From NCBI GenBank assembly GCA_965249535.1, contig OZ252241.1, positions 1,020,730 through 1,084,729 of the forward strand: a stretch of 64,000 nt of DNA, given 5' to 3'. Within the stretch, counting starts at the first letter, position 1; every line of letters begins with the position of its first letter. The notes under the pieces are model-generated. The model ran no database searches. It was not told the DNA's origin and saw nothing but the letters and a program-made list of their open reading frames with translations. The translations under genes and the position numbers were made by a program. The stretch is from Vicinamibacterales bacterium (lineage in GTDB: Bacteria; Acidobacteriota; Vicinamibacteria; Vicinamibacterales; G965249535). Shown in pieces: positions 45,715 to 61,329 of this stretch.

Positions 45715-46326
45715 TTACGCCTCTGTCAGAGCCCTCTTAATGACGCTACGAACGGCGTCCGGAAGGGTTAGTGCTAGCGCGGCTTGGTGACCTTGGGGTG
45801 ACATCTTCTTCCATGTCTTACGAATAATTCTAACGATTTTATCTTCGTCGTGCTGCTTGGCAAAATCTGAAAAATGATTCTCAAGAAAGACCAAACAGAT
45901 GACATCCTCAAGAACTTGGACCTCTGGATCTAGTTTGAGTTTCTCCTTCCGCAAAAGGGTCTTTACGCGTTCCACGGTCTGCTCATCATAGTCAGAGTCT
46001 TTGAGAATCTCTCCCGCTCTATCAGCATGAAACTCTGCCGCCCGCGCTCGCCAGACCTTGTAACCAGATCGATCCATTGGATAATCGCTTCTTGGAATGG
46101 TCCACCTGAGGATATGCTGACATCGCGCGGCGAGTCGCAATGCCTCAGGGGCTTCTGGCATCATTTTTACTAGCCACGCCGTCATACGTTGCGCGTACAG
46201 CAGCTCTTTGGGGCGCTCGACTCCGTTAAAAAATTCGAGTCTTGGATCGTCCGAGTTCGCCGTATCAAAACGAGCAATAGCTAACTCAAAACGTTGTCGG
46301 GCAGACCCATTTTCAGACCCCAACAT
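45715..46326 (-). CDS. DUF4202-domain protein
   Basis: 203 aa. FDTANSDDPR...ELLYAQRMT.WL....P.A.EAL.LAARCQHI.RW.IPR..YP....GY..WR and LEDVICLVFLE. Its start overlaps the sat-cysC stop by 14 nt. Confidence 0.7.
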   Translation of the reverse strand: MLGSENGSARQRFELAIARFDTANSDDPRLEFFNGVERPKELLYAQRMTAWLVKMMPEAPEALRLAARCQHILRWTIPRSDYPMDRSGYKVWRARAAEFHADRAGEILKDSDYDEQTVERVKTLLRKEKLKLDPEVQVLEDVICLVFLENHFSDFAKQHDEDKIVRIIRKTWKKMSPQGHQAALALTLPDAVRSVIKRALTEA

Positions 46327-48034
46327 AGCCCTCTTGTTTCAAGTGTACGAGGATCTGCTGTGCTGCTAGTTCAGGGGTAATATCGGTTGTATCAATAACC
46401 AGGTGAGCGTCTGACGGTTCCTCATAGGGATCCGAAATTCCCGTAAATTCCTTAATGATTCCTGCTCGGGCTTTGGCGTATAAACCTTTTCTATCTCGTT
46501 GTTCACAGATCTCCAGCGGTGTCGCGACGTGTACCAGGATAAAACCACCCAAGGGACTTACCATACCCCGAACCTGTTTTCTAACCGCGTCGTAAGGTGC
46601 TATCGGCGCACAGAGAGCAATTCCACCGTTCTTGGTTATCTCTGAAGCAACGTACCCAATCCGATTAATGTTGAGATCACGATGTTCTCTGGAAAAACCA
46701 AGTTCCGATGAGAGGTGTCGGCGGACAATGTCGCCGTCCAGAAGTGTAACAGGCCGTCCTCCCATTTCGAGGAACTTAACCAATAGAACATTAGCAATGG
46801 TTGACTTCCCTGAACCCGAAAGCCCCGTGAACAAAACCGTAAAACCCTGTCGATTACGTGGAGGGTGACTTCGTCTCAATTCATCAGCCACGTCAGGAAA
46901 AGTAAACCATGGTGGAATATCTCGACCTTCTGCAAGATGATGTCTTAGGTCTGTACCCGATATGTTTAAAGCGTGTTTTCCTGTCGGCACCTCGTCCTGA
47001 GCAACGTATGAATCAAGCTCTTGGACGTATACCATCATCTTGAACGGCACCATCCTTACACCTACCTCTTCCTCATACTTCCTGAGGAGATCCTGTGCTT
47101 CGTAAGGCCCGTAAAAAGGATTCCCCGCTGAGTCACTACCGGGACCAGCGTGGTCCCGACCGACGATCAGGTGACTACAGCCATAGTTCTTACGAATGAT
47201 GGCATGCCATACCACCTCCCGAGGTCCAGCCATTCGCATGGCCAGTGGAAGAAGTGAAAGCATAGCCGTCTTCTTGGGATACCGATCAATAAGGGCCTGA
47301 TAGCAACGGACTCGGGTATAGTGATCAACATCACCAGGCTTAGTCATTCCGACAACTGGGTGAATCAGTAGGTTAGCTTTTGCCTCCCTAGCTGCTCGGA
47401 GCGTGATCTCCTGATGCGCACGATGCATCGGATTTCTAGTCTGGAATGCTACGACCTCTCGCCAGTCTCGCTTGCTGAACTCAGTCCGCAGGTTAGCAGG
47501 CGTGTGTCTCAATTGCTGATAGTCGTAATGTGATACCTCCTGAAGTCCTTCGAGACGTCCCCCGACATAAAATGTTTTTGTTGAGTCAAGAAGATAGGAA
47601 ACACCTGGATGATCTTGATTAACCGAACTAAACACGGCTTCAGCTTCAGCCTTACGATCTGGCTGCCAAACGTCCTCCACATGCAGGACGGCGAGCATCA
47701 CACCTTCTTCATCCCTCAATGCCAGAACAGAATCGAGCTTTAAGGTCTTAGCCACTTCCTCGGTTACGTCTAACATTACTGGCACTGGCCATAAAAGACC
47801 ATTGCTTAGCCGCATCGACTGGCATACACCCTCATAGTCAATCCGGGTCATGTAACCACTGAGCGGTGAAAATCCACCATTTAGTAAAAGCTCAAGATCG
47901 CACAACTGGCGCCCTGTAAGGTCATGGGATGGCCAATCCCGCGACCCTGCCTTTATTTCGATCGCTCGTTCACGATCAACAATGAGATCGACCAGTTTTC
48001 CCCCATGGGGATCAGGAAAGGTCTCTTTCACCAC
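46313..48034 (-). CDS. sat: Bifunctional sulfate adenylyltransferase / adenylylsulfate kinase
   Basis: 573 aa with a GTG start and GGAG RBS. ATP-sulfurylase motifs QTRNPMHRAHQE and VGRDHAG. The C-terminal APS-kinase domain has an intact P-loop (FTGLSGSGKSTIA) and LDGDIVR. Confidence 0.9.
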   Translation of the reverse strand: MVKETFPDPHGGKLVDLIVDRERAIEIKAGSRDWPSHDLTGRQLCDLELLLNGGFSPLSGYMTRIDYEGVCQSMRLSNGLLWPVPVMLDVTEEVAKTLKLDSVLALRDEEGVMLAVLHVEDVWQPDRKAEAEAVFSSVNQDHPGVSYLLDSTKTFYVGGRLEGLQEVSHYDYQQLRHTPANLRTEFSKRDWREVVAFQTRNPMHRAHQEITLRAAREAKANLLIHPVVGMTKPGDVDHYTRVRCYQALIDRYPKKTAMLSLLPLAMRMAGPREVVWHAIIRKNYGCSHLIVGRDHAGPGSDSAGNPFYGPYEAQDLLRKYEEEVGVRMVPFKMMVYVQELDSYVAQDEVPTGKHALNISGTDLRHHLAEGRDIPPWFTFPDVADELRRSHPPRNRQGFTVLFTGLSGSGKSTIANVLLVKFLEMGGRPVTLLDGDIVRRHLSSELGFSREHRDLNINRIGYVASEITKNGGIALCAPIAPYDAVRKQVRGMVSPLGGFILVHVATPLEICEQRDRKGLYAKARAGIIKEFTGISDPYEEPSDAHLVIDTTDITPELAAQQILVHLKQEGYVGV

Positions 48035-48416
48035 ATAATCTCCAGAAAAATTAGGAAAATCTACAAGGCCTTGACCGTTGGATATAAGTGGTCCAAAAGA
48101 TCAAGGTAACTACATCACTCGTTACTCATTCTGCATAGGCACAATCAACTGCCAATGTGTCTTTCCGTGGAGCCAAAGTCTTCGAAAGGAGATATGCTCA
48201 CCTGGAACACTTGCGGTAACTGGATATGCTCCATTTCAACCCGCTCCTACTAGACTACCCTCATATTATACCTTAAGCTGATCGGATTTTACTGACTAAC
48301 AGAGCTGCGTGAGATAAAGCTTCAGTGCGAGTGCGTTAGTTTGTCTTATTCTATCTCTATAGTTTTTAATGCTGGCTATGTTTAAGGAAGCAACGAAGAT
48401 AAGGTAGGGTAACCTT

Positions 48417-49099: not shown

Positions 49100-51268
49100 G
49101 TGAAGTGTTCCATCCGTAAATTGCCAATAGTAATGTTGATCGTTGGTTTGCTGCTGTTTGCATCAGGCACGGCGGATGCGTACGTAGGCCCAGGTGCCGG
49201 CTTTGCCTTCGTTTCCTCCTTCTTTATCCTCATTTTCACGATGTTCCTAGCCTTCCTTACGATGCTAACCTGGCCATTTCGGCTAGTGATGCAACGTATC
49301 CGTGGAAGAAAAGCACATGCAGCAAGCCGCGTTCAGCAAGTCGTCATCCTTGGCTTAGATGGACAGGACCCGGAATTGACTCAGCAATTCATGAACAAAG
49401 GTCTACTTCCAAATTTTTCACGATTGAAAGAAAAAGGGACATTTCTACCCTTAGAGACGACGCTGCTCGCCGAATCGCCGGTTGCATGGACATCATTTCA
49501 GACTGGCTGCAACCCCGGCAAGCACCGAATATTTGATTTTCTAGTCCCAAATCGTAAGTCATACCTTCCAGAACTGTCTTCGGCCAAAGTAAGCTCATCC
49601 AAACGAACACTCAGTATCGGACGTATCCGTATCCCGATAGGAAAACCGAACATTCAAGGCGGTCGTAGGAGTCAAACCTTTTGGAAGATTCTCGGAGCAC
49701 ATGGAATCTTTAGCACAATTCTCCGAGTCCCGATCACATTCCCTCCAGAGAAATTCAACGGAGTAATGTTGTCGGCGATGAGTGTGCCGGATCTGAAAGG
49801 GACTCAAGGGACCTACTATTACTTCACTAGTGATCCACTTGAACGGATACAACTTACTAGCGGAGAGCGCTTTCCGATTGAGCTCAACGATGGAACGGCC
49901 AAGGGAGTGATTCATGGACCAGAGAATACTTTAAGCCGTACTGGCGGTGAAATGCATCTTCCATTCGAGATAAAAATAGGAAAAGGCCAACTTTTGTCAA
50001 AAATTCAACTCGCTGGTAAAACGTATCCTCTAAAGCTCAAGGATTACACGCCGTGGATTCCTTTAGGATTCAGAGCCGGACCAGGAATCAAGGTCCAGGG
50101 CATTGTGCGTTTCTACCTTCTTGAAACCTCGCCGCACGTGAAACTGTATATGACGCCAATCAATATCGATCCTGAAAAACCCGCTTTACCAATCTCGTAC
50201 CCCTTCACGTACGCCATTTACTTAGCCAAAACACAGGGACGCTATTCAACTCTAGGTCTGGCCGAAGACACGTCGGCTTTAAATGAAAATGTGGTAGACG
50301 AAGATGCTTTCCTAGCGCAAACCTATCTGATTCATCAGGAACGTGAACGCATGTTTTTTGATGCACTTAATAAAACAACTCGAGGTGCGACTGTTTGTGT
50401 ATTCGACATTACGGACCGCCTTCAACATATGTTTTTTCGTCATCTCGACCGTAGCCATCCGGCTAATCGCGGACGAAATGTCACGAAACACCGTGATGCC
50501 ATAAAGAAACTGTACCGGGATATGGACGACCTCGTCGGACGAACCATGAACCTGTTAGACGATAAAACAGTACTCATCGTCATGTCTGATCATGGCTTCA
50601 AATCTTTTAGACGCGGTGTCAATCTAAACAGCTGGCTCCATCAAAATGGATTTCTGGCCGTTAAGCATAAACCTACTGGAATAGATATGTTCCAAGATGT
50701 TGATTGGGAAAATACGAAGGCTTACGCCGTTGGTTTCGGTGGTATCTACTTAAATGTTGTTGGCAGGGAAGCTCAAGGAACCGTGACGCCAGGAGAGGCA
50801 GCTGAGAGCGTCAAACTGGAAATTAGAGAAGGGTTGCAACGCCTATACGACGAAAAAGAAGATGTCTACCCAGTTAAATCGGTTTATGACTCGAAAAAAG
50901 TGTACACGGGCCCTTATGTATCAGATGCTCCTGATCTTATCGTTGGGTTTCGTCCAGGGCATAGGGTCGCCTGGGGATCAGTCACAGGTAGTATTAGCGA
51001 CGAGATCATCGAAGACAACGACCGCTATTGGAGTGGAGATCATAATTTCAATCCGCCTGATGTCCCTGGAATGTTCTTCTGCAATTGGAAGATTGCAACT
51101 AAAACCCCCAGCATTCTTGATCTCGGTCCCACAGTGCTGGACTTGTTTGGCGTGCCCATACCGCCCTATTGTGACGGTAAGTCTCTGATCCCGAGAATTA
51201 CAAAACCCAAGGTAATTAGTGAAACGTCCGATGACCAATCACAGTTAAAGCAAGTGGCCATTCGATGA
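49100..51268 (+). CDS. Alkaline-phosphatase-superfamily protein (nucleotide pyrophosphatase/phosphodiesterase-like), membrane anchored
   Basis: 722 aa. Two N-terminal hydrophobic segments flank YVGPGAG. VVILGLDGQDPEL, ESPVAWTSFQTGCNPGKHRIFDF (nucleophile region) and VMSDHGF. Confidence 0.7.
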   Translation: MKCSIRKLPIVMLIVGLLLFASGTADAYVGPGAGFAFVSSFFILIFTMFLAFLTMLTWPFRLVMQRIRGRKAHAASRVQQVVILGLDGQDPELTQQFMNKGLLPNFSRLKEKGTFLPLETTLLAESPVAWTSFQTGCNPGKHRIFDFLVPNRKSYLPELSSAKVSSSKRTLSIGRIRIPIGKPNIQGGRRSQTFWKILGAHGIFSTILRVPITFPPEKFNGVMLSAMSVPDLKGTQGTYYYFTSDPLERIQLTSGERFPIELNDGTAKGVIHGPENTLSRTGGEMHLPFEIKIGKGQLLSKIQLAGKTYPLKLKDYTPWIPLGFRAGPGIKVQGIVRFYLLETSPHVKLYMTPINIDPEKPALPISYPFTYAIYLAKTQGRYSTLGLAEDTSALNENVVDEDAFLAQTYLIHQERERMFFDALNKTTRGATVCVFDITDRLQHMFFRHLDRSHPANRGRNVTKHRDAIKKLYRDMDDLVGRTMNLLDDKTVLIVMSDHGFKSFRRGVNLNSWLHQNGFLAVKHKPTGIDMFQDVDWENTKAYAVGFGGIYLNVVGREAQGTVTPGEAAESVKLEIREGLQRLYDEKEDVYPVKSVYDSKKVYTGPYVSDAPDLIVGFRPGHRVAWGSVTGSISDEIIEDNDRYWSGDHNFNPPDVPGMFFCNWKIATKTPSILDLGPTVLDLFGVPIPPYCDGKSLIPRITKPKVISETSDDQSQLKQVAIR

Positions 51269-53304
51269 ACAAGAAAAAGAAAAGGCTGGTTCGTCTGATC
51301 ATCTACTCTGTTTTAGCAACGACCTGTGTATCGGTCGCGTTTACCATCGAAACAAACGAAAATCGGAGAGTCATTATCATAGGAATCGATGGCCTGGATC
51401 CAAAGCTGCTCGAACGTTTCATCGCTGACGGCCGCCTACCGAACTTTAAACAGCTCGTTTCACAAGGCGACCTCAAACCCCTCGAGACCAGTATGCCTCC
51501 CCTCAGTCCGGTTGCATGGTCGAACTTCATAACGGGAATGAAGTCTGGTGGCCATGGGATCTTCGATTTCATTCATCGCGATCCGGAAACATATCTCCCG
51601 TACGACTCAATCTACAGAGTTGGCCAACCCGGTCGCAGCCTAGGATTCGGAACATGGGTCATTCCTTTCTCTGGCGGAGAAGTAGAGCTCTTAAGAAAGG
51701 GACAAGCTTTTTGGGAAATTCTTGAAGACGAAGGTGTACCTACTACCATTTTCCGAATGCCAGTCAACTTCCCTCCGGTTAAAACAAATGGTCGGTCTCT
51801 CTCAGGTATGGGAACACCTGATATCCTCGGTACGCATGGAACATTCTCCTTCTATACGGATTCCCCACTCGACAATGCAACCGAGATCTCTGGTGGAGCA
51901 GTTTACCTCGTAGACGTTATCGGCAACCGAGTAAAAGAAAAACTCAGAGGACCGCCAAATACTTTCCGGAGATTCCCTAAGTCGTCCTCATCATCTCGTT
52001 ATGGCCTCAGTCAACCTGGAGAGCCTCAATACGAGAATCCTGAGCTAGCTGTTGATTTCGAAGTGTTTCTGGATCCTGATAATGCCGCGGCAAAATTTGT
52101 CGTTCAAGATACTGAATTCATCCTGAACGAAGGTGAGTGGAGCGATTGGATCGAGGTGAACTTCGAAGCCGTACCTTACGTCGTAAACATAAGTGCAGTC
52201 GCCCATTTCTATTTGAAACAAGTGAGGCCTGACTTCAAGCTTTACGTAACGCCACTCCAAATTAGCCTGAAGAATCCTGCACTACCGATATCAACCCCAG
52301 AAGGCTGGGCCAGTGAACTCTACAACGAACTCGGTCACATTTACACACAAGAACTCCCCGAAGATACCAAGGCATTCACAACCGGTATTTTCTCGGGTCA
52401 AGAATTTTGGGAACAATCACAGCTCATTTACAAAGAACGACGCAGGGCACTCGATTACATGCTCGACTCCTTCGAAGATGAGGGACTGCTGTTTTTCTAC
52501 TTTTCCTCAGTAGATCAAGGAACTCACATGCTCTACCACTACATGGATGAGGCTCACCCAGCATTCACCCGAGAGGCTCAGCTGTTCGATGGAATCGGAA
52601 CCCTCTACGAAGAGATGGATGAGGCCATTGGGAGAGTTCTTGAAGAAGTGGATAACGATACAACCTTGATCGTTATGTCAGACCACGGATTCTCTCCGTT
52701 CTACTGGGGAGTAAATCTGAACACGTGGTTACTCGAAAACGGCTACGTAACATTAAAGAATCCAGCGAATCAGGGCCAACTACCTCTTTACCTTAACGTT
52801 GACTGGTCCGCCACAAAGGCCTATGCGGCTGGACTCAACGGTCTTTACATTAATCTCAAGGGTCGTGAACGAAACGGCATCGTCGAGCCAGGGCTAGAGT
52901 ACGAACAACTACTCACCCAACTGGAAATAGACTTGCTGGCTATGCGAGACGACCGGACAGGCCAACAAGCTGTTACACTGGCTCTCCGAGCCGATCAAGA
53001 GTTTGAAGGAGACTATCCATCGGTCGGTCCAGATCTCGTGGTTGGTTACAATTGGGGTTATCGTAGTTCCTGGGAAAACCCGTTGGGTGAATTTCCACCA
53101 GAGATCTTCGTGGACAATGACGACCCTTGGAGTGGTGACCACGCCATCGACTATCGACTGGTTCCGGGTGTCCTTCTCACCAATCAACGAATCACACTTA
53201 AGGAACCAACACTCTACGATCTCACAGTCGCCGTTCTCGACGAATTCGGCGTCTCGCCCCTACCCGAAATGATAGGTGAGGATTGCCTAGAGCCAAGAAA
53301 ATAG
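51265..53304 (+). CDS. Alkaline-phosphatase-superfamily protein, paralogue of the upstream gene
   Basis: 679 aa with an ATGA overlap and a single N-terminal anchor. VIIIGIDGLDPKL, LSPVAWSNFITGMKSGGHGIFDF and VMSDHGF. It is collinear with the 49100 gene. Confidence 0.7.
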   Translation: MNKKKKRLVRLIIYSVLATTCVSVAFTIETNENRRVIIIGIDGLDPKLLERFIADGRLPNFKQLVSQGDLKPLETSMPPLSPVAWSNFITGMKSGGHGIFDFIHRDPETYLPYDSIYRVGQPGRSLGFGTWVIPFSGGEVELLRKGQAFWEILEDEGVPTTIFRMPVNFPPVKTNGRSLSGMGTPDILGTHGTFSFYTDSPLDNATEISGGAVYLVDVIGNRVKEKLRGPPNTFRRFPKSSSSSRYGLSQPGEPQYENPELAVDFEVFLDPDNAAAKFVVQDTEFILNEGEWSDWIEVNFEAVPYVVNISAVAHFYLKQVRPDFKLYVTPLQISLKNPALPISTPEGWASELYNELGHIYTQELPEDTKAFTTGIFSGQEFWEQSQLIYKERRRALDYMLDSFEDEGLLFFYFSSVDQGTHMLYHYMDEAHPAFTREAQLFDGIGTLYEEMDEAIGRVLEEVDNDTTLIVMSDHGFSPFYWGVNLNTWLLENGYVTLKNPANQGQLPLYLNVDWSATKAYAAGLNGLYINLKGRERNGIVEPGLEYEQLLTQLEIDLLAMRDDRTGQQAVTLALRADQEFEGDYPSVGPDLVVGYNWGYRSSWENPLGEFPPEIFVDNDDPWSGDHAIDYRLVPGVLLTNQRITLKEPTLYDLTVAVLDEFGVSPLPEMIGEDCLEPRK

Positions 53305-53463
53305 TGCGAGTTCCTCTTCTTGATTTGACAGCCATCCCGGCTCTGCTAACTCTTAGGCAATCAACAATGTCTACCCAACAAGAGAAATGTTGAAGACGAT
53401 GAACCCATAAGGTAGTTATAAGATGTCCGTGTAATCGACTTTAGTTAGAGGAGGTTGGCTAAC

Positions 53464-53655
53464 ATGTTCGGATCCAGGATCAAGATTGATAAAACCCTCC
53501 TTACCAGAGCCACGAAATACTCTGCGATTGCGGGTTACTCTTCTGTTGAAGAATTCGTGAACCATGCACTGGAAAAAGAACTCGTCCAACTCGAGGGAGC
53601 TGACTCTGAAGAAGAGATAAAAAAACGACTCAAAGGTTTAGGGTACATCTCGTAG
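53464..53655 (+). CDS. Small hypothetical protein (possible ribbon-helix-helix-like)
   Basis: GAGGAGG RBS 9 nt before ATG 53464 (the track starts at TTG 53455). 63 aa: MFGSRIKIDKTLLTRATKYSAIAGYSSVEEFVNHALEKEL...GLGYIS. Confidence 0.45.
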   Translation: MFGSRIKIDKTLLTRATKYSAIAGYSSVEEFVNHALEKELVQLEGADSEEEIKKRLKGLGYIS

Positions 53656-53742
53656 GTAACAGAAAAAGTCGCAGCGCGTTGGTCGTCTACTGAAAAGACA
53701 CGTCGATATGCGGCACTCGAAGATTAGCAAACAAAAGAGGAA

Positions 53743-54576
53743 ATGATAGCGCTTACCCAAACAATCAACGCTACCCTTACTTTCATTTTCGACATAATCT
53801 CGTGGCCGTTACAGGCATTAGACCCTATTTGGGCGATGGCCGTGATCTCACTGTTGGTTGGTCCGTTAATGGTCTGGATCTTTGGAAAAATCTCAAATCA
53901 AGAAGCCATCAAGTTAATCCGAGATCGGATCAGAGGTAATTTGATCGGGGTTCGCTTGTTTCAAAACAATGTGCGCGTTGTGCTCACTTTGCAAGGAATG
54001 ATCGCACGTGACACCCTTCGATTCATGGCGCACGCGCTATTTCCAATGCTAGTTCTCCTAATACCTCTTGTCCTGGTGATGACTCAACTTAACCTCCGGT
54101 TCTCGGCACGCCCCTTACGACCGGGAGAAAACGCTGTCGTAAAGGTCCAGGTTCGGAATGATGCTGCGCTTCTTGAACGAATACAACTCGAGCCGTCCCA
54201 AGGAGTCACTATTGAAACACCCGCTGTACGAATCCCTTCCAAACGCGAGGTCGCCTGGCGCGTAAGGGCCGAAGTCGCCGGATCGCATTCTCTCGTAGTT
54301 CAGATAGGCAACGACTCGATAAAAAAGGGTCTGATTGCTGGTAGCGGTTGGACGACCGTATCAGGACTACGAACCGGGCGAAGTCTCTGGGAAATCCTTC
54401 TATATCCAGGCGAAAAACCAATACCAAGTTCAGTAGTCGTGGAATCCATAGAGATTAACTATCCGTCACTCGATCTGATAATCTTGGGTTGGAATTTCCA
54501 GTGGTTAGTCTTGTTCCTAGTCCTATCTATGGGCTCAGGTTTCGCATTCAAAGGCGTCTTGGGAGTCGAGGTCTAG
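53743..54576 (+). CDS. Hypothetical membrane protein
   Basis: 277 aa. Two or three N-terminal helices, a soluble beta-rich middle region and a C-terminal helix. I recognise no family. Confidence 0.5.
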   Translation: MIALTQTINATLTFIFDIISWPLQALDPIWAMAVISLLVGPLMVWIFGKISNQEAIKLIRDRIRGNLIGVRLFQNNVRVVLTLQGMIARDTLRFMAHALFPMLVLLIPLVLVMTQLNLRFSARPLRPGENAVVKVQVRNDAALLERIQLEPSQGVTIETPAVRIPSKREVAWRVRAEVAGSHSLVVQIGNDSIKKGLIAGSGWTTVSGLRTGRSLWEILLYPGEKPIPSSVVVESIEINYPSLDLIILGWNFQWLVLFLVLSMGSGFAFKGVLGVEV

Positions 54577-54621
54577 CACCTCCCTTTAACTCAGGGAACA
54601 TGCGACGACACTTCTTACTAC

Positions 54622-54651
54622 TTGACGGATAGGGCTCTTACCAGTTATAAA
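54622..54651 (+). promoter_or_regulatory. Sigma70-like promoter of the cys leader/operon
   Basis: TTGACG (54622-54627), a 17-nt spacer, then TTATAA (54645-54650); or an 18-nt spacer to TATAAA. The predicted start site is only a few nt before ATG 54663. Confidence 0.5.
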
Positions 54652-54662
54652 ATAGGGGTAAG

Positions 54663-54761
54663 ATGATGAATGTGAACGTTTACCGGTGCTCCTGTTGCTG
54701 TTGTACGGAGGTCCAATTGGGCCCCCGCGCCGACGGTCGTTGTGTGTACCAAGATTTCTAA
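54663..54761 (+). CDS. 32-codon Cys-rich leader ORF (MMNVNVYRCSCCCCTEVQLGPRADGRCVYQDF)
   Basis: Read by hand; it is below the ORF-track size cutoff. ATG ATG ... TGC TCC TGT TGC TGT TGT (54687-54704) ... TAA at 54759-54761. It sits between the promoter and the terminator, upstream of the sulfate-assimilation operon. Confidence 0.6.
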   Translation: MMNVNVYRCSCCCCTEVQLGPRADGRCVYQDF

Positions 54762-54786
54762 GACTGACACCAATAACTGACACGAA

Positions 54787-54836
54787 CGACAAAAGGCCCG
54801 GGTGGTTAGAAACCGCCCGGGCCTTTTGTCGTTTTT
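54787..54836 (+). terminator. Strong intrinsic terminator/attenuator hairpin
   Basis: CGACAAAAGGCCCGGG (54787-54802) pairs perfectly with CCCGGGCCTTTTGTCG (54816-54831). The stem is extendable by U-G, G-C and G-C to 19 bp with a 7-nt loop. TTTTT follows at 54832-54836, 17 nt before the next start codon. Confidence 0.8.
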
Positions 54837-54853
54837 GCGATCGAGAGGCGGCC

Positions 54854-55081
54854 ATGCTTGAAGAAAGTCCGATTCGGTCTGTAGTAAAAGCCATTTCCTG
54901 GCGTGTCTTGGCCTCGACAGCTACGATTATCCTAGTACTAATTTTTACGGGAGAGCTAGCTACAGCGATGACAGTAGGTGCTTTCGAAATGTTTATGAAG
55001 ATGATCCTCTACTTCGTCCACGAACGAGTATGGAATAAATTCACTCTCGGACGTAGGGAATTGCAAGGAATATCCTCATGA
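54854..55081 (+). CDS. DUF2061-domain small membrane protein
   Basis: 75 aa from ATG 54854: MLEESPIRSVVKAISWRVLASTATIILVLIFTGELATAMTVGAFEMFMKMILYFVHERVWNKF. The track ORF 54686..55081 includes spurious upstream codons that span the terminator. Confidence 0.75.
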   Translation: MLEESPIRSVVKAISWRVLASTATIILVLIFTGELATAMTVGAFEMFMKMILYFVHERVWNKFTLGRRELQGISS

Positions 55082-55812
55082 GAAATACAGTTACTGGCCT
55101 TTCTGATGGCGTATCAAAGAACAAGCTGAGACAATACGCACAGTCGATGGAAGGGTGGGCAGCCCTTGATATCCTCAAGTGGGCATCGACTTCCTTTTCC
55201 AAACGAGTAACTTGTGCCACAGGGTTCGGACCAGAGGGGTGCGTCCTCATCGATCTAATCGGGCGACACCAGCTCCCAATCGACTTATTCACGCTGGACA
55301 CAGGGTTACTTTTTCAAGAAACCTATACGCTCAAGAACCAGGTCGAACATCGCTACGGGATCGTCATACGAAGTATAAAGCCAAAGTTGACCGTCCAGGA
55401 ACAAGCCAACAAGCTAGGTCCAAATCTCTGGGATGCCAAACCAGACCTCTGTTGCGAAATTCGAAAGGTAGCTCCTCTTCGAGAAACACTCTCAGCGTTT
55501 GAAGCTTGGATCACAGCTATCCGCCGCGAACAGACCGCTACGCGAGCGAATGCTCAGGTAGTTGAGTGGGATGAAAATTTCCAACTGATCAAAGTAAACC
55601 CCCTTGCTCTGTGGTCAAACGAAGAAGTATGGAAATACCTACACGAACACAAGGTTCCATATAACTCCCTCCATGATGAGAACTACCCTAGCATCGGCTG
55701 CACACCGTGCACCAGTCCAGTTAAGCCCGGAGAGGGTTTGCGCAGTGGGCGATGGCGGGGCAAGTCTAAGTCAGAGTGTGGACTCCATGATTCACAAAGA
55801 ATCTCGGCTTGA
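55078..55812 (+). CDS. cysH: Assimilatory adenylylsulfate (APS) reductase, Fe-S type CysH
   Basis: 244 aa with an ATGA overlap to DUF2061. PAPS-reductase fold, C-terminal KSECGLH, plus the Cys pairs LCCEIRKVAPL and SIGCTPCT that mark the 4Fe-4S APS-reductase subgroup. Confidence 0.85.
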   Translation: MRNTVTGLSDGVSKNKLRQYAQSMEGWAALDILKWASTSFSKRVTCATGFGPEGCVLIDLIGRHQLPIDLFTLDTGLLFQETYTLKNQVEHRYGIVIRSIKPKLTVQEQANKLGPNLWDAKPDLCCEIRKVAPLRETLSAFEAWITAIRREQTATRANAQVVEWDENFQLIKVNPLALWSNEEVWKYLHEHKVPYNSLHDENYPSIGCTPCTSPVKPGEGLRSGRWRGKSKSECGLHDSQRISA

Positions 55813-56489
55813 TTCCAACAAACTGGCAACACTCAAACCTTGGTAGAATCAAATATGAAGGCGCGTTGGATGAAATGAGAGAAGACGACCTTTATCCATT
55901 GTTTGCGAAACTTGCCGGCCGCAAAGTAGTCTTGGTAGGCGGTGGTAAAGTTGCAGCATCGAAGCTCCCAGCACTTTTGACAGCGGCAGCTGAAGTCACC
56001 GTGGTCGCACCAAGGATTCGGCGGGACATCCAGGGACCCAAAGTTAAGCTTGTGCGCCGGGCGTTCGTGTCTCAAGATTTGAATGGGGCTTGGTTTGTGA
56101 TTGCAGCAGCACCGCAGCAGATAAACAGAGAGGTTTCAATCGCTGCGGAAGAGCGGCAGCTTTTCGTAAATGCTGTCGATGACCCAGCTAATGCTACCGC
56201 TTACTTGGGAGGAGTCGTTCGAAACAGTGGTGTCACTGTTGCAATATCGACGAACGGTCGTTCGCCCGCACTCGTTGGTCTTATACGAGAGGGGTTCGAA
56301 GCAGTACTCCCCTCTGCAGATCTGGAATCGTGGACAATTCAAGCACAAGCTACAAGAAAAGATTGGCAGGTTCGGATGGTTCCAATCGCTGATCGACGTC
56401 CCTTACTACTCCAAGCACTCAACCGCCTGTACGAAGAATCGGCCAAACAACGGAACCCGGATAACCACACACCACGAGTGAATCGATGA
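55809..56489 (+). CDS. Precorrin-2 dehydrogenase / sirohydrochlorin ferrochelatase (CysG N-terminal-domain type, SirC/Met8-like)
   Basis: Rossmann motif GRKVVLVGGGKVAASK. The TTG start at 55809 overlaps the cysH stop (TTGA); an alternative ATG lies at 55875. Confidence 0.8.
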   Translation: MIPTNWQHSNLGRIKYEGALDEMREDDLYPLFAKLAGRKVVLVGGGKVAASKLPALLTAAAEVTVVAPRIRRDIQGPKVKLVRRAFVSQDLNGAWFVIAAAPQQINREVSIAAEERQLFVNAVDDPANATAYLGGVVRNSGVTVAISTNGRSPALVGLIREGFEAVLPSADLESWTIQAQATRKDWQVRMVPIADRRPLLLQALNRLYEESAKQRNPDNHTPRVNR

Positions 56490-57265
56490 AGAAAACGGGA
56501 CTTGTGTCAATCATCGGAGCAGGTCCCGGAGATCCGGAACTACTAACTCAGAAGGCCGTTCGTCGCTTGAATCAGGCGGACTTTGTCTTGCATGATGCCC
56601 TGATTCCTCAGGAAATACTTGATCTCGCTCCACAGGCACGACGCTTCTTGGTGGGTCGCCGAGTCGGCCAACCACGACCCAGCCACGAAACTGTTAATCA
56701 ACTCCTTATCCATGCTGCGACGTGGGGCAAGCGGTTAGTGAGACTCAAGGGTGGCGATCCATTCGTTCTTGGACGTGGAGGTGAGGAATTGCAGTTCCTC
56801 AGAAAGATGGGGATTCCTTTCGAAGTTATCCCCGGAATCAGTTCCGCGATCGCAGCGCCGGCATTTGCTGGGATTCCGGTCACTCATCGCGGACTTGCTT
56901 CAGGTTTTACGGTAGTATCCGGTCATGCTGAGTCGGCGTATCTCCAAATTCTCAAAGCAATTGTCCCAAATTCATTAACTCTGATTGTTCTAATGGGCAT
57001 CAAACGCAGAGCTGAACTAGTGAGCGTCCTATTAGCTCAGGGGTGGAAACAAGTGACGCCAACCGCGGTCGTATTCGGAGCCTGCACACCACAGGGCCAC
57101 ACATGGATAGGAACTCTAGAGAACCTCGGTATGGCTCCATGCGAATCGTTCCCTGATATTCCAGGAACGATTATCGTCGGTGACGTTGTTTCCCTGAGTC
57201 CGATCGCTAAAGGAGACACAGGCGAACTTACTCCTTTGCTAGCTACAGCTAGTCGTGGACATTAA
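56486..57265 (+). CDS. cobA: Uroporphyrinogen-III C-methyltransferase (SUMT)
   Basis: 259 aa with an ATGA overlap. VSIIGAGPGDPELLT, VRLKGGDPFVLGRGGEE and IPGISSAIAAPAFAGIPVTHR. Confidence 0.9.
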   Translation: MKKTGLVSIIGAGPGDPELLTQKAVRRLNQADFVLHDALIPQEILDLAPQARRFLVGRRVGQPRPSHETVNQLLIHAATWGKRLVRLKGGDPFVLGRGGEELQFLRKMGIPFEVIPGISSAIAAPAFAGIPVTHRGLASGFTVVSGHAESAYLQILKAIVPNSLTLIVLMGIKRRAELVSVLLAQGWKQVTPTAVVFGACTPQGHTWIGTLENLGMAPCESFPDIPGTIIVGDVVSLSPIAKGDTGELTPLLATASRGH

Positions 57266-59561
57266 ATTGCCCGGAGGTATGATGACGCTGACCCAGCATC
57301 TAACGTGGAAAGAAAGACTGGCCGACAAGATCGATCCTACTCTGGCAAGAGAAATCGAAGTCTATGAAAGCCAGATAGCACTGAAGCGTAAAGGCAAGCT
57401 CGACGACAAAGTGTTTGCGGAGACGCGGCTCCGTCGAGGTGTATATGGCCAACGATACGACAGTGGCCAGCGAAACGATGGAAAGGGTGTTCAGCAACTT
57501 GAATATCCATCAGAAGAACTGACCAAAGGCCCAGAAACACTGTGGGACGCACCAGGTATGCAGCGGATCAAGATTCCATTCGGAGGTTTGAATCCAAAAC
57601 AAATGGACTTACTAGCTGACCTGGCTGAGGAATATTCAGACGAAGTGTGCCACGTGACTACGCGCCAAGATGTCCAACTCCATTATATACATATTGACGA
57701 CACACCGTCCTTAATGCGACGTCTAGCTGCTACTGGAATAACCACCCGTGAGGCATGTGGTAACTCCGTCCGTAACGTTACTGCGTGTCCATTGGCAGGC
57801 GTGTGTCGTGATGAACCTTTCGACGTTACACCTTATGCGCAGGCGTGCTCGAGATTTCTACTCGGACATCCAGACTGCCAGGATTTTGGTCGAAAGTTCA
57901 AGATGGCATTTTCTGGGTGTAAGCAGCATGCCTGTGGATTGGTCAACATGCACGACTTCGGAGCCATCGCGGTCAAGAAGTTTAAAAACGGTGTCGAACG
58001 GAGGGGCTTCGAACTGCACGTTGGAGGCGGCCTTGGAGCCGTACCGCATGAGGCAAAGCTGTTCGATGCCTTTCTAGCAGAAGAGGAATTATTGCCGACA
58101 GCGCAGGCAATTGCTCGTGTTTTTGCACGACTTGGCGAGAAACGTAACAGAGCTCGTGCGCGTATTAAGTTCTTAGTTAACCGACTAGGTATTGATGAAT
58201 TCCGCCGAGTCGTTTTAGAAGAGCGAGCAAAGTTACCACACGACGAACAGTGGACAACCTACCTGTCTGGACTAGCTAAATACAGTGAAAAACCTCTCAG
58301 ACTCGACTCACCCTTAAACGGAAAAGAAAGGCCAAACGGTTTCGATGAGTGGTGTACAACGAACGTTTACCGGCAGCGCCAATCTGGCTATAGCGTTGTG
58401 GACGTGACATTGCCGCTCGGAGATCTAACCTCACGACAGATGCGAAAACTTGCTGATATTGCACGTCGCTACGTCGGAGATTCTGTGCGCACAACGGTTG
58501 AACAAAACATCGCGCTACGGTGGGTACGCGACAGCGATCTACCCGATGTTTATAATGAACTAAAAACCATCGGTCTTAGTCAGTCAGGTGCCAAGACGAT
58601 TGTTGATATCACAGCATGTCCAGGAACAGATACCTGCAAACTGGGTATCGCTTCATCACGTGGGTTAGCAGCAGAACTCCGAATGCGTCTGATGGCAAAG
58701 TCGGTTGACCTGGACGAAGCCGTTCGAGCACTTCACATTAAGATCAGCGGCTGCATGAACTCCTGTGGACACCATCATATCGCGGATATTGGTTTCTACG
58801 GTGTTAGTAGAAACATTGGAGGTTATACCGTACCCCACTTCCAACTTGTACTTGGTGGAAAATGGACAGAAAACGCAGGCTCGTATGGTTTAGCTATCGG
58901 TGCAATCCCATCTAAAAATATCCCTGATGCTGTTTCACGCCTCACCCATCGATTTGTCAGTGACAGACGCCAAGGGGAAACATTTCAGAATTTCATCCAA
59001 CGGCTCGGTAGAAAGGCGTTGAAAGAATTGGTCGATGATCTAACTAGGGTGCCCACTTACGAGGACGACCGTAGCCACTACTCGGATTGGGGAGATCCTC
59101 GTGAGTTCACTATCGGCGATATGGGCATAGGCGAATGTGCCGGTGAGGTGGTGTCACTTGCAGACTTCGACATCGCTGCTGCCGAAGGTCAGGTATTTGA
59201 AGCACAACTTCACCTCGAGGACGGAAACTATCAGAAAGCAGATGAAATGTCTTTCGGTGCCATGCTGTTGGCCGCGAGGGGCCTTATCAAGACAGAGTAT
59301 GTAGACATCAGCGACGACCCCAACCAAATCGTCGAGTTATTCAAGGAGCGCTTTTATAACACTCAACTCTTCTTCGACAAGTATGCTGGCGGTAAGTTTG
59401 CCCAGTACCTCTTTCGTAGACACGCAGCCGAACATCCGTCCAAAACCCAAGAGACGTCACGCCGTCTAATAGAAGAAGCGCAACTGTTTCTCGAGGCGAC
59501 GCACGCCTGTCACACTCGTTTACTAGCCCAGCGAATGGACAAAACAGCAACCCGTCAGTAG
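57255..59561 (+). CDS. sir: Ferredoxin-type assimilatory sulfite reductase with a C-terminal extension of about 200 aa
   Basis: 768 aa (alternative ATGs at 57279 and 57282, after GGAGG). Two NiR/SiR repeats. Sirohaem-4Fe4S ligands TACPGTDTCKLG and SGCMNSCGHHH. Residues from about 560 onward lie beyond the usual SiR core. Confidence 0.8.
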   Translation: MDIKLPGGMMTLTQHLTWKERLADKIDPTLAREIEVYESQIALKRKGKLDDKVFAETRLRRGVYGQRYDSGQRNDGKGVQQLEYPSEELTKGPETLWDAPGMQRIKIPFGGLNPKQMDLLADLAEEYSDEVCHVTTRQDVQLHYIHIDDTPSLMRRLAATGITTREACGNSVRNVTACPLAGVCRDEPFDVTPYAQACSRFLLGHPDCQDFGRKFKMAFSGCKQHACGLVNMHDFGAIAVKKFKNGVERRGFELHVGGGLGAVPHEAKLFDAFLAEEELLPTAQAIARVFARLGEKRNRARARIKFLVNRLGIDEFRRVVLEERAKLPHDEQWTTYLSGLAKYSEKPLRLDSPLNGKERPNGFDEWCTTNVYRQRQSGYSVVDVTLPLGDLTSRQMRKLADIARRYVGDSVRTTVEQNIALRWVRDSDLPDVYNELKTIGLSQSGAKTIVDITACPGTDTCKLGIASSRGLAAELRMRLMAKSVDLDEAVRALHIKISGCMNSCGHHHIADIGFYGVSRNIGGYTVPHFQLVLGGKWTENAGSYGLAIGAIPSKNIPDAVSRLTHRFVSDRRQGETFQNFIQRLGRKALKELVDDLTRVPTYEDDRSHYSDWGDPREFTIGDMGIGECAGEVVSLADFDIAAAEGQVFEAQLHLEDGNYQKADEMSFGAMLLAARGLIKTEYVDISDDPNQIVELFKERFYNTQLFFDKYAGGKFAQYLFRRHAAEHPSKTQETSRRLIEEAQLFLEATHACHTRLLAQRMDKTATRQ

Positions 59562-59678: not shown

Positions 59679-60305
59679 ATGCCAACTAGGAGGAACTCTT
59701 CTGTGAAAAACGCCATCGATGAAATTCAACGGATCAAACTCAAGCTCTTTATTGAAGATAGCAGAGGCTCGAACTCACCACAACCAAGAGATTTCATCCC
59801 AATCTTCCATGAATGGATACAAAAAAGTGCTGTTAATGGTGTACTGATCGACATCGCGAATTATGATCACCTCCCCGATGGACCAGGAGTAATGCTTATC
59901 ACTCACGAAGGTAACTACTGTATCGAACGCCGGAATGGCTGTTTAGGCTTACAGTATTCCCGTAAGTATCCAATCGAAGCACCTCTACCTCAACGTTTGA
60001 CGGCTATATGGCGGATCTTACTGAAGGCCGCTCAGCTCTTAAAAGAGGAACCACAGCTCAGTGGGCGCGTCGAATTTCGTGGCGATGAGATTCAGATCAT
60101 AGCAAATGACCGACTCCTCGCGCCCAATACAGAAGTCTCACTAACGAACTTACAGCCGGTGCTAACCGAGTTTCTCAATAAGCTTTACGGACCCAGCCAT
60201 TATCAAATCTTTCGTGATGCAGATCCACGGGAACTCCTGACTCTGACGGTCAAGAGCCTTCAACCCGTACCCTTCCAAACACTCCTTGACCGTACCTGCG
60301 CCTGA
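59679..60305 (+). CDS. Hypothetical protein, family not recognised
   Basis: 208-aa ORF. An AGGAGG followed 8 nt later by GTG 59703 suggests a slightly shorter product. No hydrophobic segments. Confidence 0.45.
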   Translation: MPTRRNSSVKNAIDEIQRIKLKLFIEDSRGSNSPQPRDFIPIFHEWIQKSAVNGVLIDIANYDHLPDGPGVMLITHEGNYCIERRNGCLGLQYSRKYPIEAPLPQRLTAIWRILLKAAQLLKEEPQLSGRVEFRGDEIQIIANDRLLAPNTEVSLTNLQPVLTEFLNKLYGPSHYQIFRDADPRELLTLTVKSLQPVPFQTLLDRTCA

Positions 60306-60381: not shown

Positions 60382-61329
60382 TTGCCATTAGGGAATATTG
60401 TGCTAGAGTGTGCCGTGCATTTTGAAGCATTAAAAATCTTCTGTGATGTGATTCGCCATCAAAGTTTCTCACGTGGCGCCTCAGCGAATGCAATAAGCCA
60501 ATCAGCAGCGAGCCAGGCTATTCGCCAGCTTGAGACACGCTTAGGTGCCGACCTGATTGATCGTTCAAAGCGACCTTGTCAGCTCACTGAAGAGGGTCAA
60601 CTCTTCTTTGAGGGCTGCCAGGACATAATCGCGCGGTTCCAGGAACTGGAAAATAACGTCCGTCAGCGAATGTCACCAACTGGTTTTACTGTTCGTGTGG
60701 CGGCGATATATTCGATTGGTTTGCATGATATGGGCCAATATGTTGATCGCTTTCGGGCTTCCGTCCCAGGAGTGGATGTAGAACTGGAATACATGCACCC
60801 TAATCAAGTTTACGAACATGTACTAACTGACCAAACTCATTTTGGATTAATTTCGTTTGCTAATCCTGGACGTAAGTTAACAGCAATACCTTGGCGAACC
60901 GAACCGATGGTGGTCGCTTGTCTACCTAACCACCATTTAATCAAAAACAGAGAAGACAAAGAAAAAGGAATCGATCCCGCTTTGTTGAACGGTGAATATT
61001 TCGTCAGCTTTGACCGTGGATTAACAATTCGCCGCGAAACGGATCGCTTTTTGCGTCAGCACGATATTGACGTCGAGATTGTCGCCGAGTTTGACAATAT
61101 CGAAACGATTAAGCAAGCCGTTGAAGAAGGTACTGGCATTGCATTACTACCAGAACCCACGCTACGACGAGAAATTGTGCGTCGTACTCTGCTTTCCCTC
61201 CCCTTAACAGCATCATCTAGGAATGGACAATTCGTTCGTCCCCTGAGCATTATCCGTCGACGAGGACGGCGACTCAATATGGCAGTGAACGAATTCATTA
61301 AGCTTCTCTGCCAGGGAAACATCTCATGA
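60382..61329 (+). CDS. LysR-family transcriptional regulator
   Basis: 315 aa. N-terminal wHTH FEALKIFCDVIRHQSFSRGASANAISQSAASQAIRQLE, then a periplasmic-binding-protein-like effector domain. Confidence 0.85.
   Translation: MPLGNIVLECAVHFEALKIFCDVIRHQSFSRGASANAISQSAASQAIRQLETRLGADLIDRSKRPCQLTEEGQLFFEGCQDIIARFQELENNVRQRMSPTGFTVRVAAIYSIGLHDMGQYVDRFRASVPGVDVELEYMHPNQVYEHVLTDQTHFGLISFANPGRKLTAIPWRTEPMVVACLPNHHLIKNREDKEKGIDPALLNGEYFVSFDRGLTIRRETDRFLRQHDIDVEIVAEFDNIETIKQAVEEGTGIALLPEPTLRREIVRRTLLSLPLTASSRNGQFVRPLSIIRRRGRRLNMAVNEFIKLLCQGNIS

Follow-up and report, generated by a model that had tools for sequence, protein, structure and literature searches.

A cysteine-codon leader ahead of the DUF2061-cysH operon

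The stretch of DNA analysed here (64,000 nucleotides (nt) of a Vicinamibacterales genome, contig OZ252241.1; hereafter the window) carries on its forward (+) strand an operon for sulfate reduction and sirohaem synthesis, DUF2061-cysH-sirC-cobA-sir (54854-59561), and the subject of this report is the leader that precedes it, a candidate attenuator keyed to cysteine. Pfam matches confirm the gene identities given in an earlier note on this DNA: DUF2061 (54854-55081; DUF2061), cysH (55078-55812; PAPS_reduct), a sirC-like gene (55809-56489; NAD_binding_7 and Sirohm_synth_M), cobA (56486-57265; TP_methylase) and the sulfite reductase gene sir (57255-59561; NIR_SIR). The pathway so encoded supplies sulfide for cysteine, and the order of the five genes is identical at all related loci. 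The gap in front of the operon measures 277 base pairs (bp; 54577-54853) and extends from the end of an open reading frame (ORF) of 277 amino acids (aa) at 54576 to the ATG of DUF2061 at 54854.

A sigma-70-like promoter can be read from the letters of this gap at 54622-54651, with a -35 box TTGACG (54622-54627) and, after a spacer of 17 nt, a -10 box TTATAA (54645-54650), just as the earlier note had placed it; an alternative -10 box, TATAAA (54646-54651), would give a spacer of 18 nt. The promoter is passed over by a consensus scan, the second hexamer ending in A, and the motifs TTGAC and TAYAA are invariant across all lineages compared below (alignment A3). The -10 box ends 12-15 nt ahead of the start codon of a short upstream ORF (uORF; 54663-54761, + strand; 32 codons, stop TAA at 54759-54761; peptide MMNVNVYRCSCCCCTEVQLGPRADGRCVYQDF), which suggests, from the sequence, that the 5' untranslated region (UTR) of the uORF comprises only a few nt and that the mRNA is nearly leaderless. 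The uORF is present as claimed, but the start codon of its relatives aligns with the second ATG, at 54666, from which 31 codons are read. No Pfam family matches the leader peptide. Its distinguishing feature is the run Cys-Ser-Cys-Cys-Cys-Cys at 54687-54704 (TGC TCC TGT TGC TGT TGT). At least five Cys in six codons occur once in the window when all six frames are read, compared to an expectation of 0.02 per 64-kb window in composition-matched first-order Markov random sequences; chance is thus an unlikely explanation of the run, as had been argued from its position.

Downstream of the uORF lies an intrinsic terminator (54787-54836, + strand), in which 54787-54807 pairs with 54811-54831 around the loop AGA and is followed by U5 (54832-54836). 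The hairpin and its T-run stand where they were described, but the stem is of 21 bp, one G-U included, rather than of 16 bp (19 bp with extension). From the T-run to the ATG of DUF2061 there are 17 nt, in agreement with the earlier count. Because this leaves no room for another promoter, the operon must be read through the terminator.

Conservation of the leader at saturated divergence

Relatives were reached from the DUF2061 protein of the window by way of a 99%-identical cluster (P0001) and several clusters at about 55-60% identity, the exact protein having no record in the protein look-up. A search with CysH added three further lineages, and also matches Luteitalea and Acidobacteriota. For the type II topoisomerase A subunit of the window (2634-5084) the best named relatives belong to MAGs of Acidobacteriota and Vicinamibacterales (71-72% identity), and the phylum is assigned by these names alone. 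Together these define the species of the window itself (L023-L029) and six other leader types (L030/31, L032/33, L114-118, L127, L128 and L131-134), whose contigs show the gene order of the window: a phosphodiesterase-like gene, a 63-aa ORF, a 277-aa ORF, the gap, DUF2061, cysH, sirC, cobA and sir. The leader is common to all six of these syntenic lineages. The earlier note had made its proposal depend on relatives having a Cys-run uORF and an alternative pairing; both are carried by the six lineages plus Luteitalea (described below).

The proteins encoded next to the leader are only distantly related. CysH of the relatives is 59-61% identical to that of the window (55-61% for CysH and DUF2061 together), and four-fold degenerate sites in cysH and DUF2061, scored at identical amino acids, agree in 22-36% of cases, showing that synonymous sites are saturated. 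Despite this the intergenic leader can be aligned from end to end, with conserved blocks at TTGAC, TAYAA, the start codon, the Cys run, GAGGYCC....GGGCCCCCGYGCYGACGGTC, ACTGAC, AAGGCCCGGG and the terminator with its U-run. The core AAGGCCCGGG and the U-run are conserved in all lineages.

If the uORF serves to present codons to the ribosome, then the codon run and the reading frame should be kept while the remainder of the peptide may drift. The peptides of the relatives read MNARLTACCCCCCMEALAGPRADGQSAFMVLKY (L030), MNARLTGCCCCCCMEALAGPRADGQSAFMVLKY (L032), MNAKLTACCCCCMEALAGPRADGQSAFMVLKY (L127), MNARLTAWCCCCIEALAGPRADGQSAFMVLKY (L114-118), (MN)MNARATGCCCCCCMEAREGPRADGRSVFMVLKR (L128) and MDAKLAVCCCCCMEAREGPRADGRSVFMVLKR (L131). 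All contain four to six consecutive Cys codons (CCCCCC, CCCCC or WCCCC) at codons 8-14; indels in the run are exclusively multiples of three, and no lineage has lost the frame, the start codon (GTG in L118) or the stop, while the residues before the run vary freely. Variation of the Cys count by 3-nt indels, the kept frame, start and stop, and the free N-terminus fit a codon run that is sensed and not a functional peptide. The stretch downstream of the run behaves differently: in region 2 (defined below) all six third codon positions of GGC CCC CGC GCC GAC GGT are identical to those of the relatives. Such invariance at synonymous sites, beside neighbouring genes that are saturated, indicates a constraint on the RNA beyond that on the peptide.

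A covariance model (R1) was built from the alignment of the relatives alone (A6), the window being excluded. It matches the window once, at 54690-54833 (61.5 bits, E = 3.8e-13), and elsewhere finds no match in 55 unrelated loci (350 kb), except for a weak match to the terminator in Luteitalea. One dimension of the leader is not shared: the distance from the terminator to the DUF2061 start is about 100 nt in relatives, compared to 17 nt in the window.

A number of variants of the leader were seen along the way. In L115 an insertion sequence (IS) element (HTH_Tnp_1 and rve genes; L115:465-1816) stands in place of the upstream 277-aa gene and the leader is intact. L116 carries a 12-nt tandem duplication, GAGGTACAAGCA, just ahead of the DUF2061 start (2476-2499), and, in region 2, a G>C substitution by which 1:2 and 2:3 each lose a pair; both could be artefacts of long-read assembly or genuine variants. 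In most strains of the species to which the window belongs (L023, L025-L029) the equivalent of 54828 is A and not G, which places a C-A mismatch in the lowest part of the terminator stem, and within the species only the upper 16-17 bp are strictly kept. The higher-GC relatives have about four tandem copies of the heptamer GGCGCTA just upstream of the promoter (L030:2161-2187), and in them the attenuator is flanked by an 11-nt direct repeat, GGGCGAGTAGG, found before the -35 box and after the terminator (L030:2195-2205 and 2447-2457); neither repeat is present in the window.

Three competing helices

The leader of each lineage was folded unconstrained, without the 3' arm of the terminator, and with 30 nt around the Cys codons, at their centre, blocked as the footprint of a ribosome. 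The 206-nt leader of the window folds at -85.1 kcal/mol (z = -4.9 relative to dinucleotide shuffles), and the same four regions emerge from the folds of every lineage. Region 1 (54697-54714) takes in the final 8 nt of the Cys run and ACGGAGGUCC, and forms the 5' arm of the 1:2, or anti-antiterminator, hairpin; region 2 (54719-54745; GGGCCCCCGCGCCGACGGUCGUUGUGU) is the partner of either region 1 or region 3; region 3 (54780-54807; ACACGAACGACAAAAGGCCCGGGUGGUU) comprises the 5' arm of the terminator (from 54787) and 7 nt upstream of it, and is the antiterminator partner of region 2; region 4 is the 3' arm of the terminator. All four are read on the + strand.

The 1:2 hairpin, which is conserved and had no place in the earlier description, is of 16 bp (54697-54737) and includes the last Cys codons; its energy is -20.3 kcal/mol in the window, -19 to -22 kcal/mol in relatives and -14.8 kcal/mol in Luteitalea. 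The terminator (3:4) has -45.1 kcal/mol in the window, -26 to -35 in relatives and -31.9 in Luteitalea. For the antiterminator (2:3) the values are -29.4 kcal/mol in the window and -38 to -43 in relatives, that of Luteitalea not being clear. An antiterminator involving the 5' arm of the terminator had been proposed from pairing by hand, and a 2:3 helix is indeed found in all lineages, but it is more extensive than proposed and contains GCC/GGC rather than GGGCC/GGCCC: in the window the pairing is GGCCCCCG/CGGG.GGUU + GCC/GGC + GUCGUUGUGU/ACACgAACGAC. Of the 24 nt in the 5' arm of the terminator, 17 are taken up by this helix (17-19 of 24-25 across lineages). The window 2:3 duplex, at -27.1 kcal/mol, is more stable than duplexes with shuffled upstream sequence (-16.3 +/- 3.0 kcal/mol), and only one of 300 shuffles was as good. 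The antiterminator was also said to stand or fall with its competitiveness on folding: when the 3' arm of the terminator is withheld, 2:3 is the minimum-energy fold in every lineage, with or without a footprint on the Cys codons.

Folds of the growing window transcript give an order to these events. The 1:2 hairpin forms first, the distal part of 2:3 appears when the transcript reaches 54796 and the full 2:3 helix at 54806; when region 4 has emerged, 3:4 together with 1:2 prevails. A footprint on the Cys codons precludes 1:2, and the transcript then keeps the 2:3 fold up to the appearance of region 4.

Pairing was also counted on the alignments. Over 14 sequences 97.1% of the cells of the shared 2:3 pairs are paired (99.6% for the full helix in 11 relatives), compared to 23-63% when the partner is slid by one to three columns; for 1:2 the figures are 96.9% (14 sequences) and 34-56%. 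In the distal part of 2:3 the window has a continuous 10 bp and the relatives have GGUC/GACC plus UGCGUU/AACGCG, so that sequence and register differ and complementarity is kept. The earlier note had suggested looking for compensatory changes in relatives, and here the return is small. A compensatory pair exists in L128, where GCC>GCU in region 2, GGC>AGC in region 3 and GCC>GCU in region 4 occur together and both 2:3 and 3:4 are kept, but covariation is otherwise thin because the pairing regions are almost invariant; other variation in the helices consists of G-C to G-U changes. The likeness of region 1 (GAGGCCCGGGAGG) to region 3 (AAGGCCCGGGAGG) is plain to see in L128 and L131, as is expected of a competitor for region 2.

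A model for cysteine-dependent attenuation

All the sequence-level parts of a classical leader-peptide attenuator are present in the window: an ORF, a cluster of Cys codons, a terminator, an antiterminator and a 1:2 hairpin. We consider it probable, given their arrangement and conservation, that the leader is a ribosome-mediated transcription attenuator which responds to cysteinyl-tRNA and controls DUF2061-cysH-sirC-cobA-sir. Transcription would begin at the TTGAC/TAYAA promoter, and translation of the leader ORF would follow immediately. Under a shortage of Cys-tRNA(Cys), the ribosome would stall on the CSCCCC run (54687-54704), its footprint lying over region 1 and blocking 1:2; region 2 would then be free to pair with region 3 as soon as the latter is made, the 5' arm of the terminator would be sequestered, and RNA polymerase would pass the U-run and transcribe the operon. 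When Cys-tRNA is plentiful, the ribosome would cross region 2 and reach the stop at 54759-54761, where it would occupy the loop that joins regions 2 and 3, in contact with region 2 at its 3' edge; 1:2 would re-form behind it, region 3 would pair with region 4, and transcription would end at 54832-54836. This differs in one respect from the logic first put forward, in which a ribosome at the stop codon was thought to cover the antiterminator segment: a ribosome in that position is sited between the two pairing partners, regions 2 and 3, with no more than the 3' edge of region 2 within its reach. The elements, their conservation and the helices with their energies are matters of observation; translation of the leader, its coupling to transcription, kinetic switching and the response to cysteine are what the model would add to them.

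Several observations weigh against this model. The stop codon lies downstream of region 2, so that a terminating ribosome masks region 2 only in part. No clear conserved Shine-Dalgarno sequence precedes the uORF, and the 5' UTR appears to be very short. When the window leader is folded, the terminator prevails thermodynamically even if the Cys codons are occupied by a ribosome. At equilibrium 2:3 also forms ahead of region 4 when no ribosome is present, which leaves the state without translation uncertain. Covariation adds little: 2:3 has a single compensatory pair and 1:2 has none, and about 35 of 500 shuffles score as high on covariation as was observed, so that the helices are conserved and consistent with the covariation data, but not proven by them. 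More weight attaches to the invariant third codon positions of region 2, to the kept complementarity of distal 2:3 and to the likeness of regions 1 and 3 in L128 and L131. Finally, the relatives are all metagenome-assembled. As for the energies, the terminator being more stable than the antiterminator means that a decision to read through must be kinetic, as in trp; in Escherichia coli trp, too, the terminator is the more stable of the two.

Two of the alternatives concern the hairpin and its part in regulation. It might be a constitutive terminator, or insulator, of the upstream 277-aa gene, with the Cys ORF falling by chance in the 3' UTR of that gene and the operon having a promoter of its own. 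Beyond the end of that gene at 54576 the first terminator to be met is indeed this hairpin, and the roughly 100 nt between terminator and DUF2061 in relatives could hold a promoter, but in the window only 17 nt lie between U-run and ATG; moreover, promoter boxes, frame, Cys run and alternative helices are all conserved at saturated divergence, five Cys in six codons are expected only 0.02 times per 64 kb, and the leader persists in L115, where the upstream gene has given way to an IS element. We regard an insulator as extremely improbable. A translational mechanism, in which stalling reshapes RNA that hides the ribosome-binding site of DUF2061 and the terminator is non-regulatory, or which is itself no more than an added layer, is improbable to a lesser degree. 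Polycysteine small ORFs (sORFs) of mycobacteria act in this way (bioRxiv 10.1101/834739), and in the window region 2 (54715-54748) forms a duplex of -20.7 kcal/mol with the Shine-Dalgarno region of DUF2061 (54837-54860). The Cys run itself, however, pairs with that region only weakly (-13.2 kcal/mol), the sequence near the Shine-Dalgarno is not conserved, the gene of the relatives starts about 100 nt further away, and every lineage conserves both a strong terminator with its U-run and an antiterminator that overlaps the 5' arm of that terminator. The pairing of region 2 with the Shine-Dalgarno could nevertheless provide a second, translational layer on top of attenuation.

The other two alternatives concern the uORF. 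Its product might be a functional Cys-rich micropeptide, either metal- or redox-binding or one that causes arrest through the conserved GPRADG, and E-x-x-x-GPRADG is indeed conserved as a peptide within the window clade. Yet the GPRADG codons are invariant at synonymous sites beside genes in which such sites are saturated, which points to constraint at the level of RNA, and the same nucleotides form 1:2 and 2:3; N- and C-terminal residues vary, as does the number of Cys, with W or S substitutions; the peptide matches nothing in Pfam; and Luteitalea, which lacks GPRADG, has the hairpin and the Cys run. A micropeptide is for these reasons highly improbable. Very improbable, by a slightly milder judgement, is a riboswitch-like element in which a ligand or protein bound to the RNA controls the terminator and the uORF is incidental. 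The near-invariance of about 60 nt exceeds what simple helices need, and the gene for a LysR-type regulator just downstream shows that there is other regulation at the locus (although LysR would act on DNA), but no Rfam family is reached at threshold, the Cys run is precisely where frame-preserving indels fall, neither the start nor the stop codon is lost, and the leaders of Terriglobales (see below) share only Cys codons and the logic of the terminator with the window, not sequence.

Comparison with known leaders

Classical leader-peptide attenuation is textbook knowledge for Trp, His, Leu, Thr, Ile/Val and Phe. The window element resembles the trp, his, leu, thr, ilv and pheA attenuators in its promoter-proximal short ORF rich in codons for the end product, in its mutually exclusive 1:2, 2:3 and 3:4 helices, and in the U-run terminator just before the first structural gene. 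It differs from them in being keyed to cysteine, in its target (an operon for sulfate reduction and sirohaem) and in its host (Acidobacteriota); its stop codon lies in the 2-3 loop, not at the boundary of regions 1 and 2, and its 5' UTR is apparently of a few nt. Its match to the Rfam family Thr_leader is through the terminator only and implies no membership. At gathering thresholds Rfam 15 reached no family anywhere in the window, and an E-value search of 54000-55500 gave only sub-threshold matches to the terminator alone, the best scores (with cutoffs) being 24.9 for mir-187 (58), 23.2 for Thr_leader (55; range 20-23 bits) and 20.9 for ar35 (45).

For cysteine, the literature searched holds a translational variant in mycobacteria, terminator-less leaders in Actinobacteria and a predicted leader of cysS, the first and the last being the nearest published cases. 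In the mycobacterial 'Cys ribulon' leaderless polycysteine sORFs act translationally, the Cys tract pairing with the Shine-Dalgarno of the next gene with no terminator involved, and uORF-mediated attenuation for cysteine was stated not to have been described before (Canestrari et al. 2020, bioRxiv 10.1101/834739). The window shares with these sORFs consecutive Cys codons in an unannotated first ORF of an operon of cysteine metabolism and would share the principle of stalling, and its 5' UTR may, like theirs, be very short or absent; unlike them it has a conserved terminator and antiterminator, and its Cys tract pairs with region 2 and not with the Shine-Dalgarno, which places it outside the mycobacterial type (defined by a Cys tract paired to the Shine-Dalgarno and no terminator). 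In Actinobacteria, leader peptides with Cys codons were found ahead of cys and cbs operons by comparative genomics (Seliverstov et al. 2005, PMC1262725); no conserved terminator hairpins accompany them, and their mode of action was left open, with Rho suggested (PMC1262725). These too are short ORFs with Cys-codon runs ahead of genes for cysteine biosynthesis, but the window has a complete and conserved terminator/antiterminator.

The cysS leader is uORFC-8-2, a ribosome-mediated attenuator predicted ahead of that gene in Rhodobacterales (Brewer et al. 2021, PMC8632094), which likewise places its tandem Cys codons in the first of two stems, the second being a terminator with U-run. It controls cysS and not cysteine biosynthesis, it belongs to Alphaproteobacteria, it has no sequence similarity to the window, and it has two tandem Cys codons near codons 14-15, compared to four to six at codons 8-14 here; the window element is not a member of it. 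Beyond these cited cases the literature searched yielded no described Cys terminator attenuator and no leader-peptide attenuator in Acidobacteria. The statement that no terminator-type Cys attenuator has been described ahead of a cysH-sir operon holds for the same literature, with the predicted cysS leader (PMC8632094) to be set beside it.

We therefore see in the window a new amino acid, pathway and phylum for a well-known kind of regulation, a reading that is well supported by comparison of the sequences. A conserved terminator/antiterminator design before a sulfate-reduction operon would fill the cysteine gap in classical attenuation, and would tie the membrane protein DUF2061 to cysteine-regulated assimilation of sulfur. 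It also offers a concrete, testable regulatory element for Acidobacteriota, an abundant soil phylum in which gene regulation is almost unstudied; according to Naville & Gautheret (2010), almost no predicted attenuator of the phylum has an assigned function. Scanning for runs of codons for one amino acid and then for terminators can reveal such elements in uncultured lineages.

Distribution of Cys-run leaders beyond the window clade

In a Luteitalea sp. (L135, GCA_009377495.1) a leader region (3791-3967) stands ahead of cysH-sirC-cobA-sir, with no DUF2061 gene. It has a uORF (3791-3886; MRIAQPNCVCCCRVARIGPLGCGLCVATEPV) with the Cys run CVCCC, a hairpin GGCCA-GAAU-UGGCC directly 3' of the run, a distal pairing UGUGCGU/ACGCACA, and a terminator (AAAGGCCCGGGGGCUC...GAGCUCCCGGGCCUUUCUGUUUUUU) with the same AAGGCCCGGG core. 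Judged by these features the Luteitalea leader is a remote homologue of that of the window, with a less clear antiterminator, and its occurrence without DUF2061 indicates that the leader travels with the cysH operon and not with DUF2061.

Two metagenome-assembled genomes (MAGs) of Terriglobales (Acidobacteriaceae) have unrelated leaders of similar construction, each with a Cys-rich uORF. In L004 a uORF (590-679; MLSQNLQAMCMCTGCCCAFVCSGAGRLPT) is followed by a terminator (708-748) and then by genes from sulfite reductase to cysH; a segment of the uORF, CUCUGGCGCGGGG, pairs with the terminator arm CCCACCGCCAGA and provides a clear antiterminator. In L005 a uORF (2321-2407; MLNAFQNMCLCCCGCPCTSVLGSVFDLK) is followed by a terminator at about 2432-2478 and by cysG-cysH-cysD. 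Model R1 detected neither leader, which makes them analogues and not homologues, and they look like independent inventions of the same logic. The recurrence of such leaders in Luteitalea and Terriglobales hints at repeated evolution. On balance we lean, by a little, to the broader view that terminator attenuation keyed to Cys is widespread in assimilatory sulfate reduction of Acidobacteriota and has evolved more than once, the window clade and Luteitalea forming one family. If true, this would be the first classical transcription attenuator of a cysteine pathway, and would give a function to predicted attenuators in a phylum where almost none has one.

Elsewhere the leader was not met with. 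Among 80 diverse DUF2061 loci (from a metagenome scan with a DUF2061 alignment) there is no convincing Cys-run uORF within 700 nt upstream, so that the leader is specific to a lineage and not tied to DUF2061 as such; L120-L124, whose DUF2061 is 56% identical, have a different context and no leader. Domains of planctomycete type in a neighbour of this lineage had suggested Planctomycetota, a reading given up when the topoisomerase search favoured Acidobacteriota/Vicinamibacterales. No Cys-run uORF precedes the cysH loci of planctomycetes, Bacillota and Arcobacter that were inspected. The closest CysH matches in the genome collection (55-63% identity), from the Myxococcota MAGs L001-L003, were set aside: their cysH is stand-alone, with no DUF2061 and no leader. 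A further Acidobacteriota MAG (L136; 3772-3843) has a short uORF, MAMRCMCPRPEGLARAGGVLLQS, before cysH-sir, with the run CMC (two Cys codons) and no clear terminator; this may be a degenerate or a different form of control.

Genomic surroundings

Other genes of sulfur metabolism and regulation lie near the operon. A fused ATP-sulfurylase/adenylylsulfate (APS)-kinase gene, sat-cysC (46313-48034, - strand; PUA_2, ATP-sulfurylase and APS_kinase), is found 6.5 kb upstream, and in L131-L134 it adjoins the leader and operon divergently. The region upstream of the window gene (48035-48416) contains no Cys-run uORF; the leader is thus not common to all the sulfate-assimilation genes of this genome region. 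Just after the operon come a 208-aa ORF (59679-60305), for which Pfam gives no match, and a gene for a LysR-family regulator (60382-61329, + strand; HTH_1 and LysR_substrate), which may be a CysB-like regulator acting alongside the attenuator.

Between sat-cysC and the leader, a block at 49100-54576 (+ strand) is conserved in nearly all relatives. It contains two paralogous genes of the phosphodiesterase/alkaline-phosphatase superfamily (with a weak match to sulfatase), an ORF of 63-66 aa and the 277-aa ORF, which belongs to no Pfam family and resembles a membrane protein. In L128 a gene with a sulfotransferase domain occupies the position of this block. The block may represent a linked function in the scavenging of sulfur.

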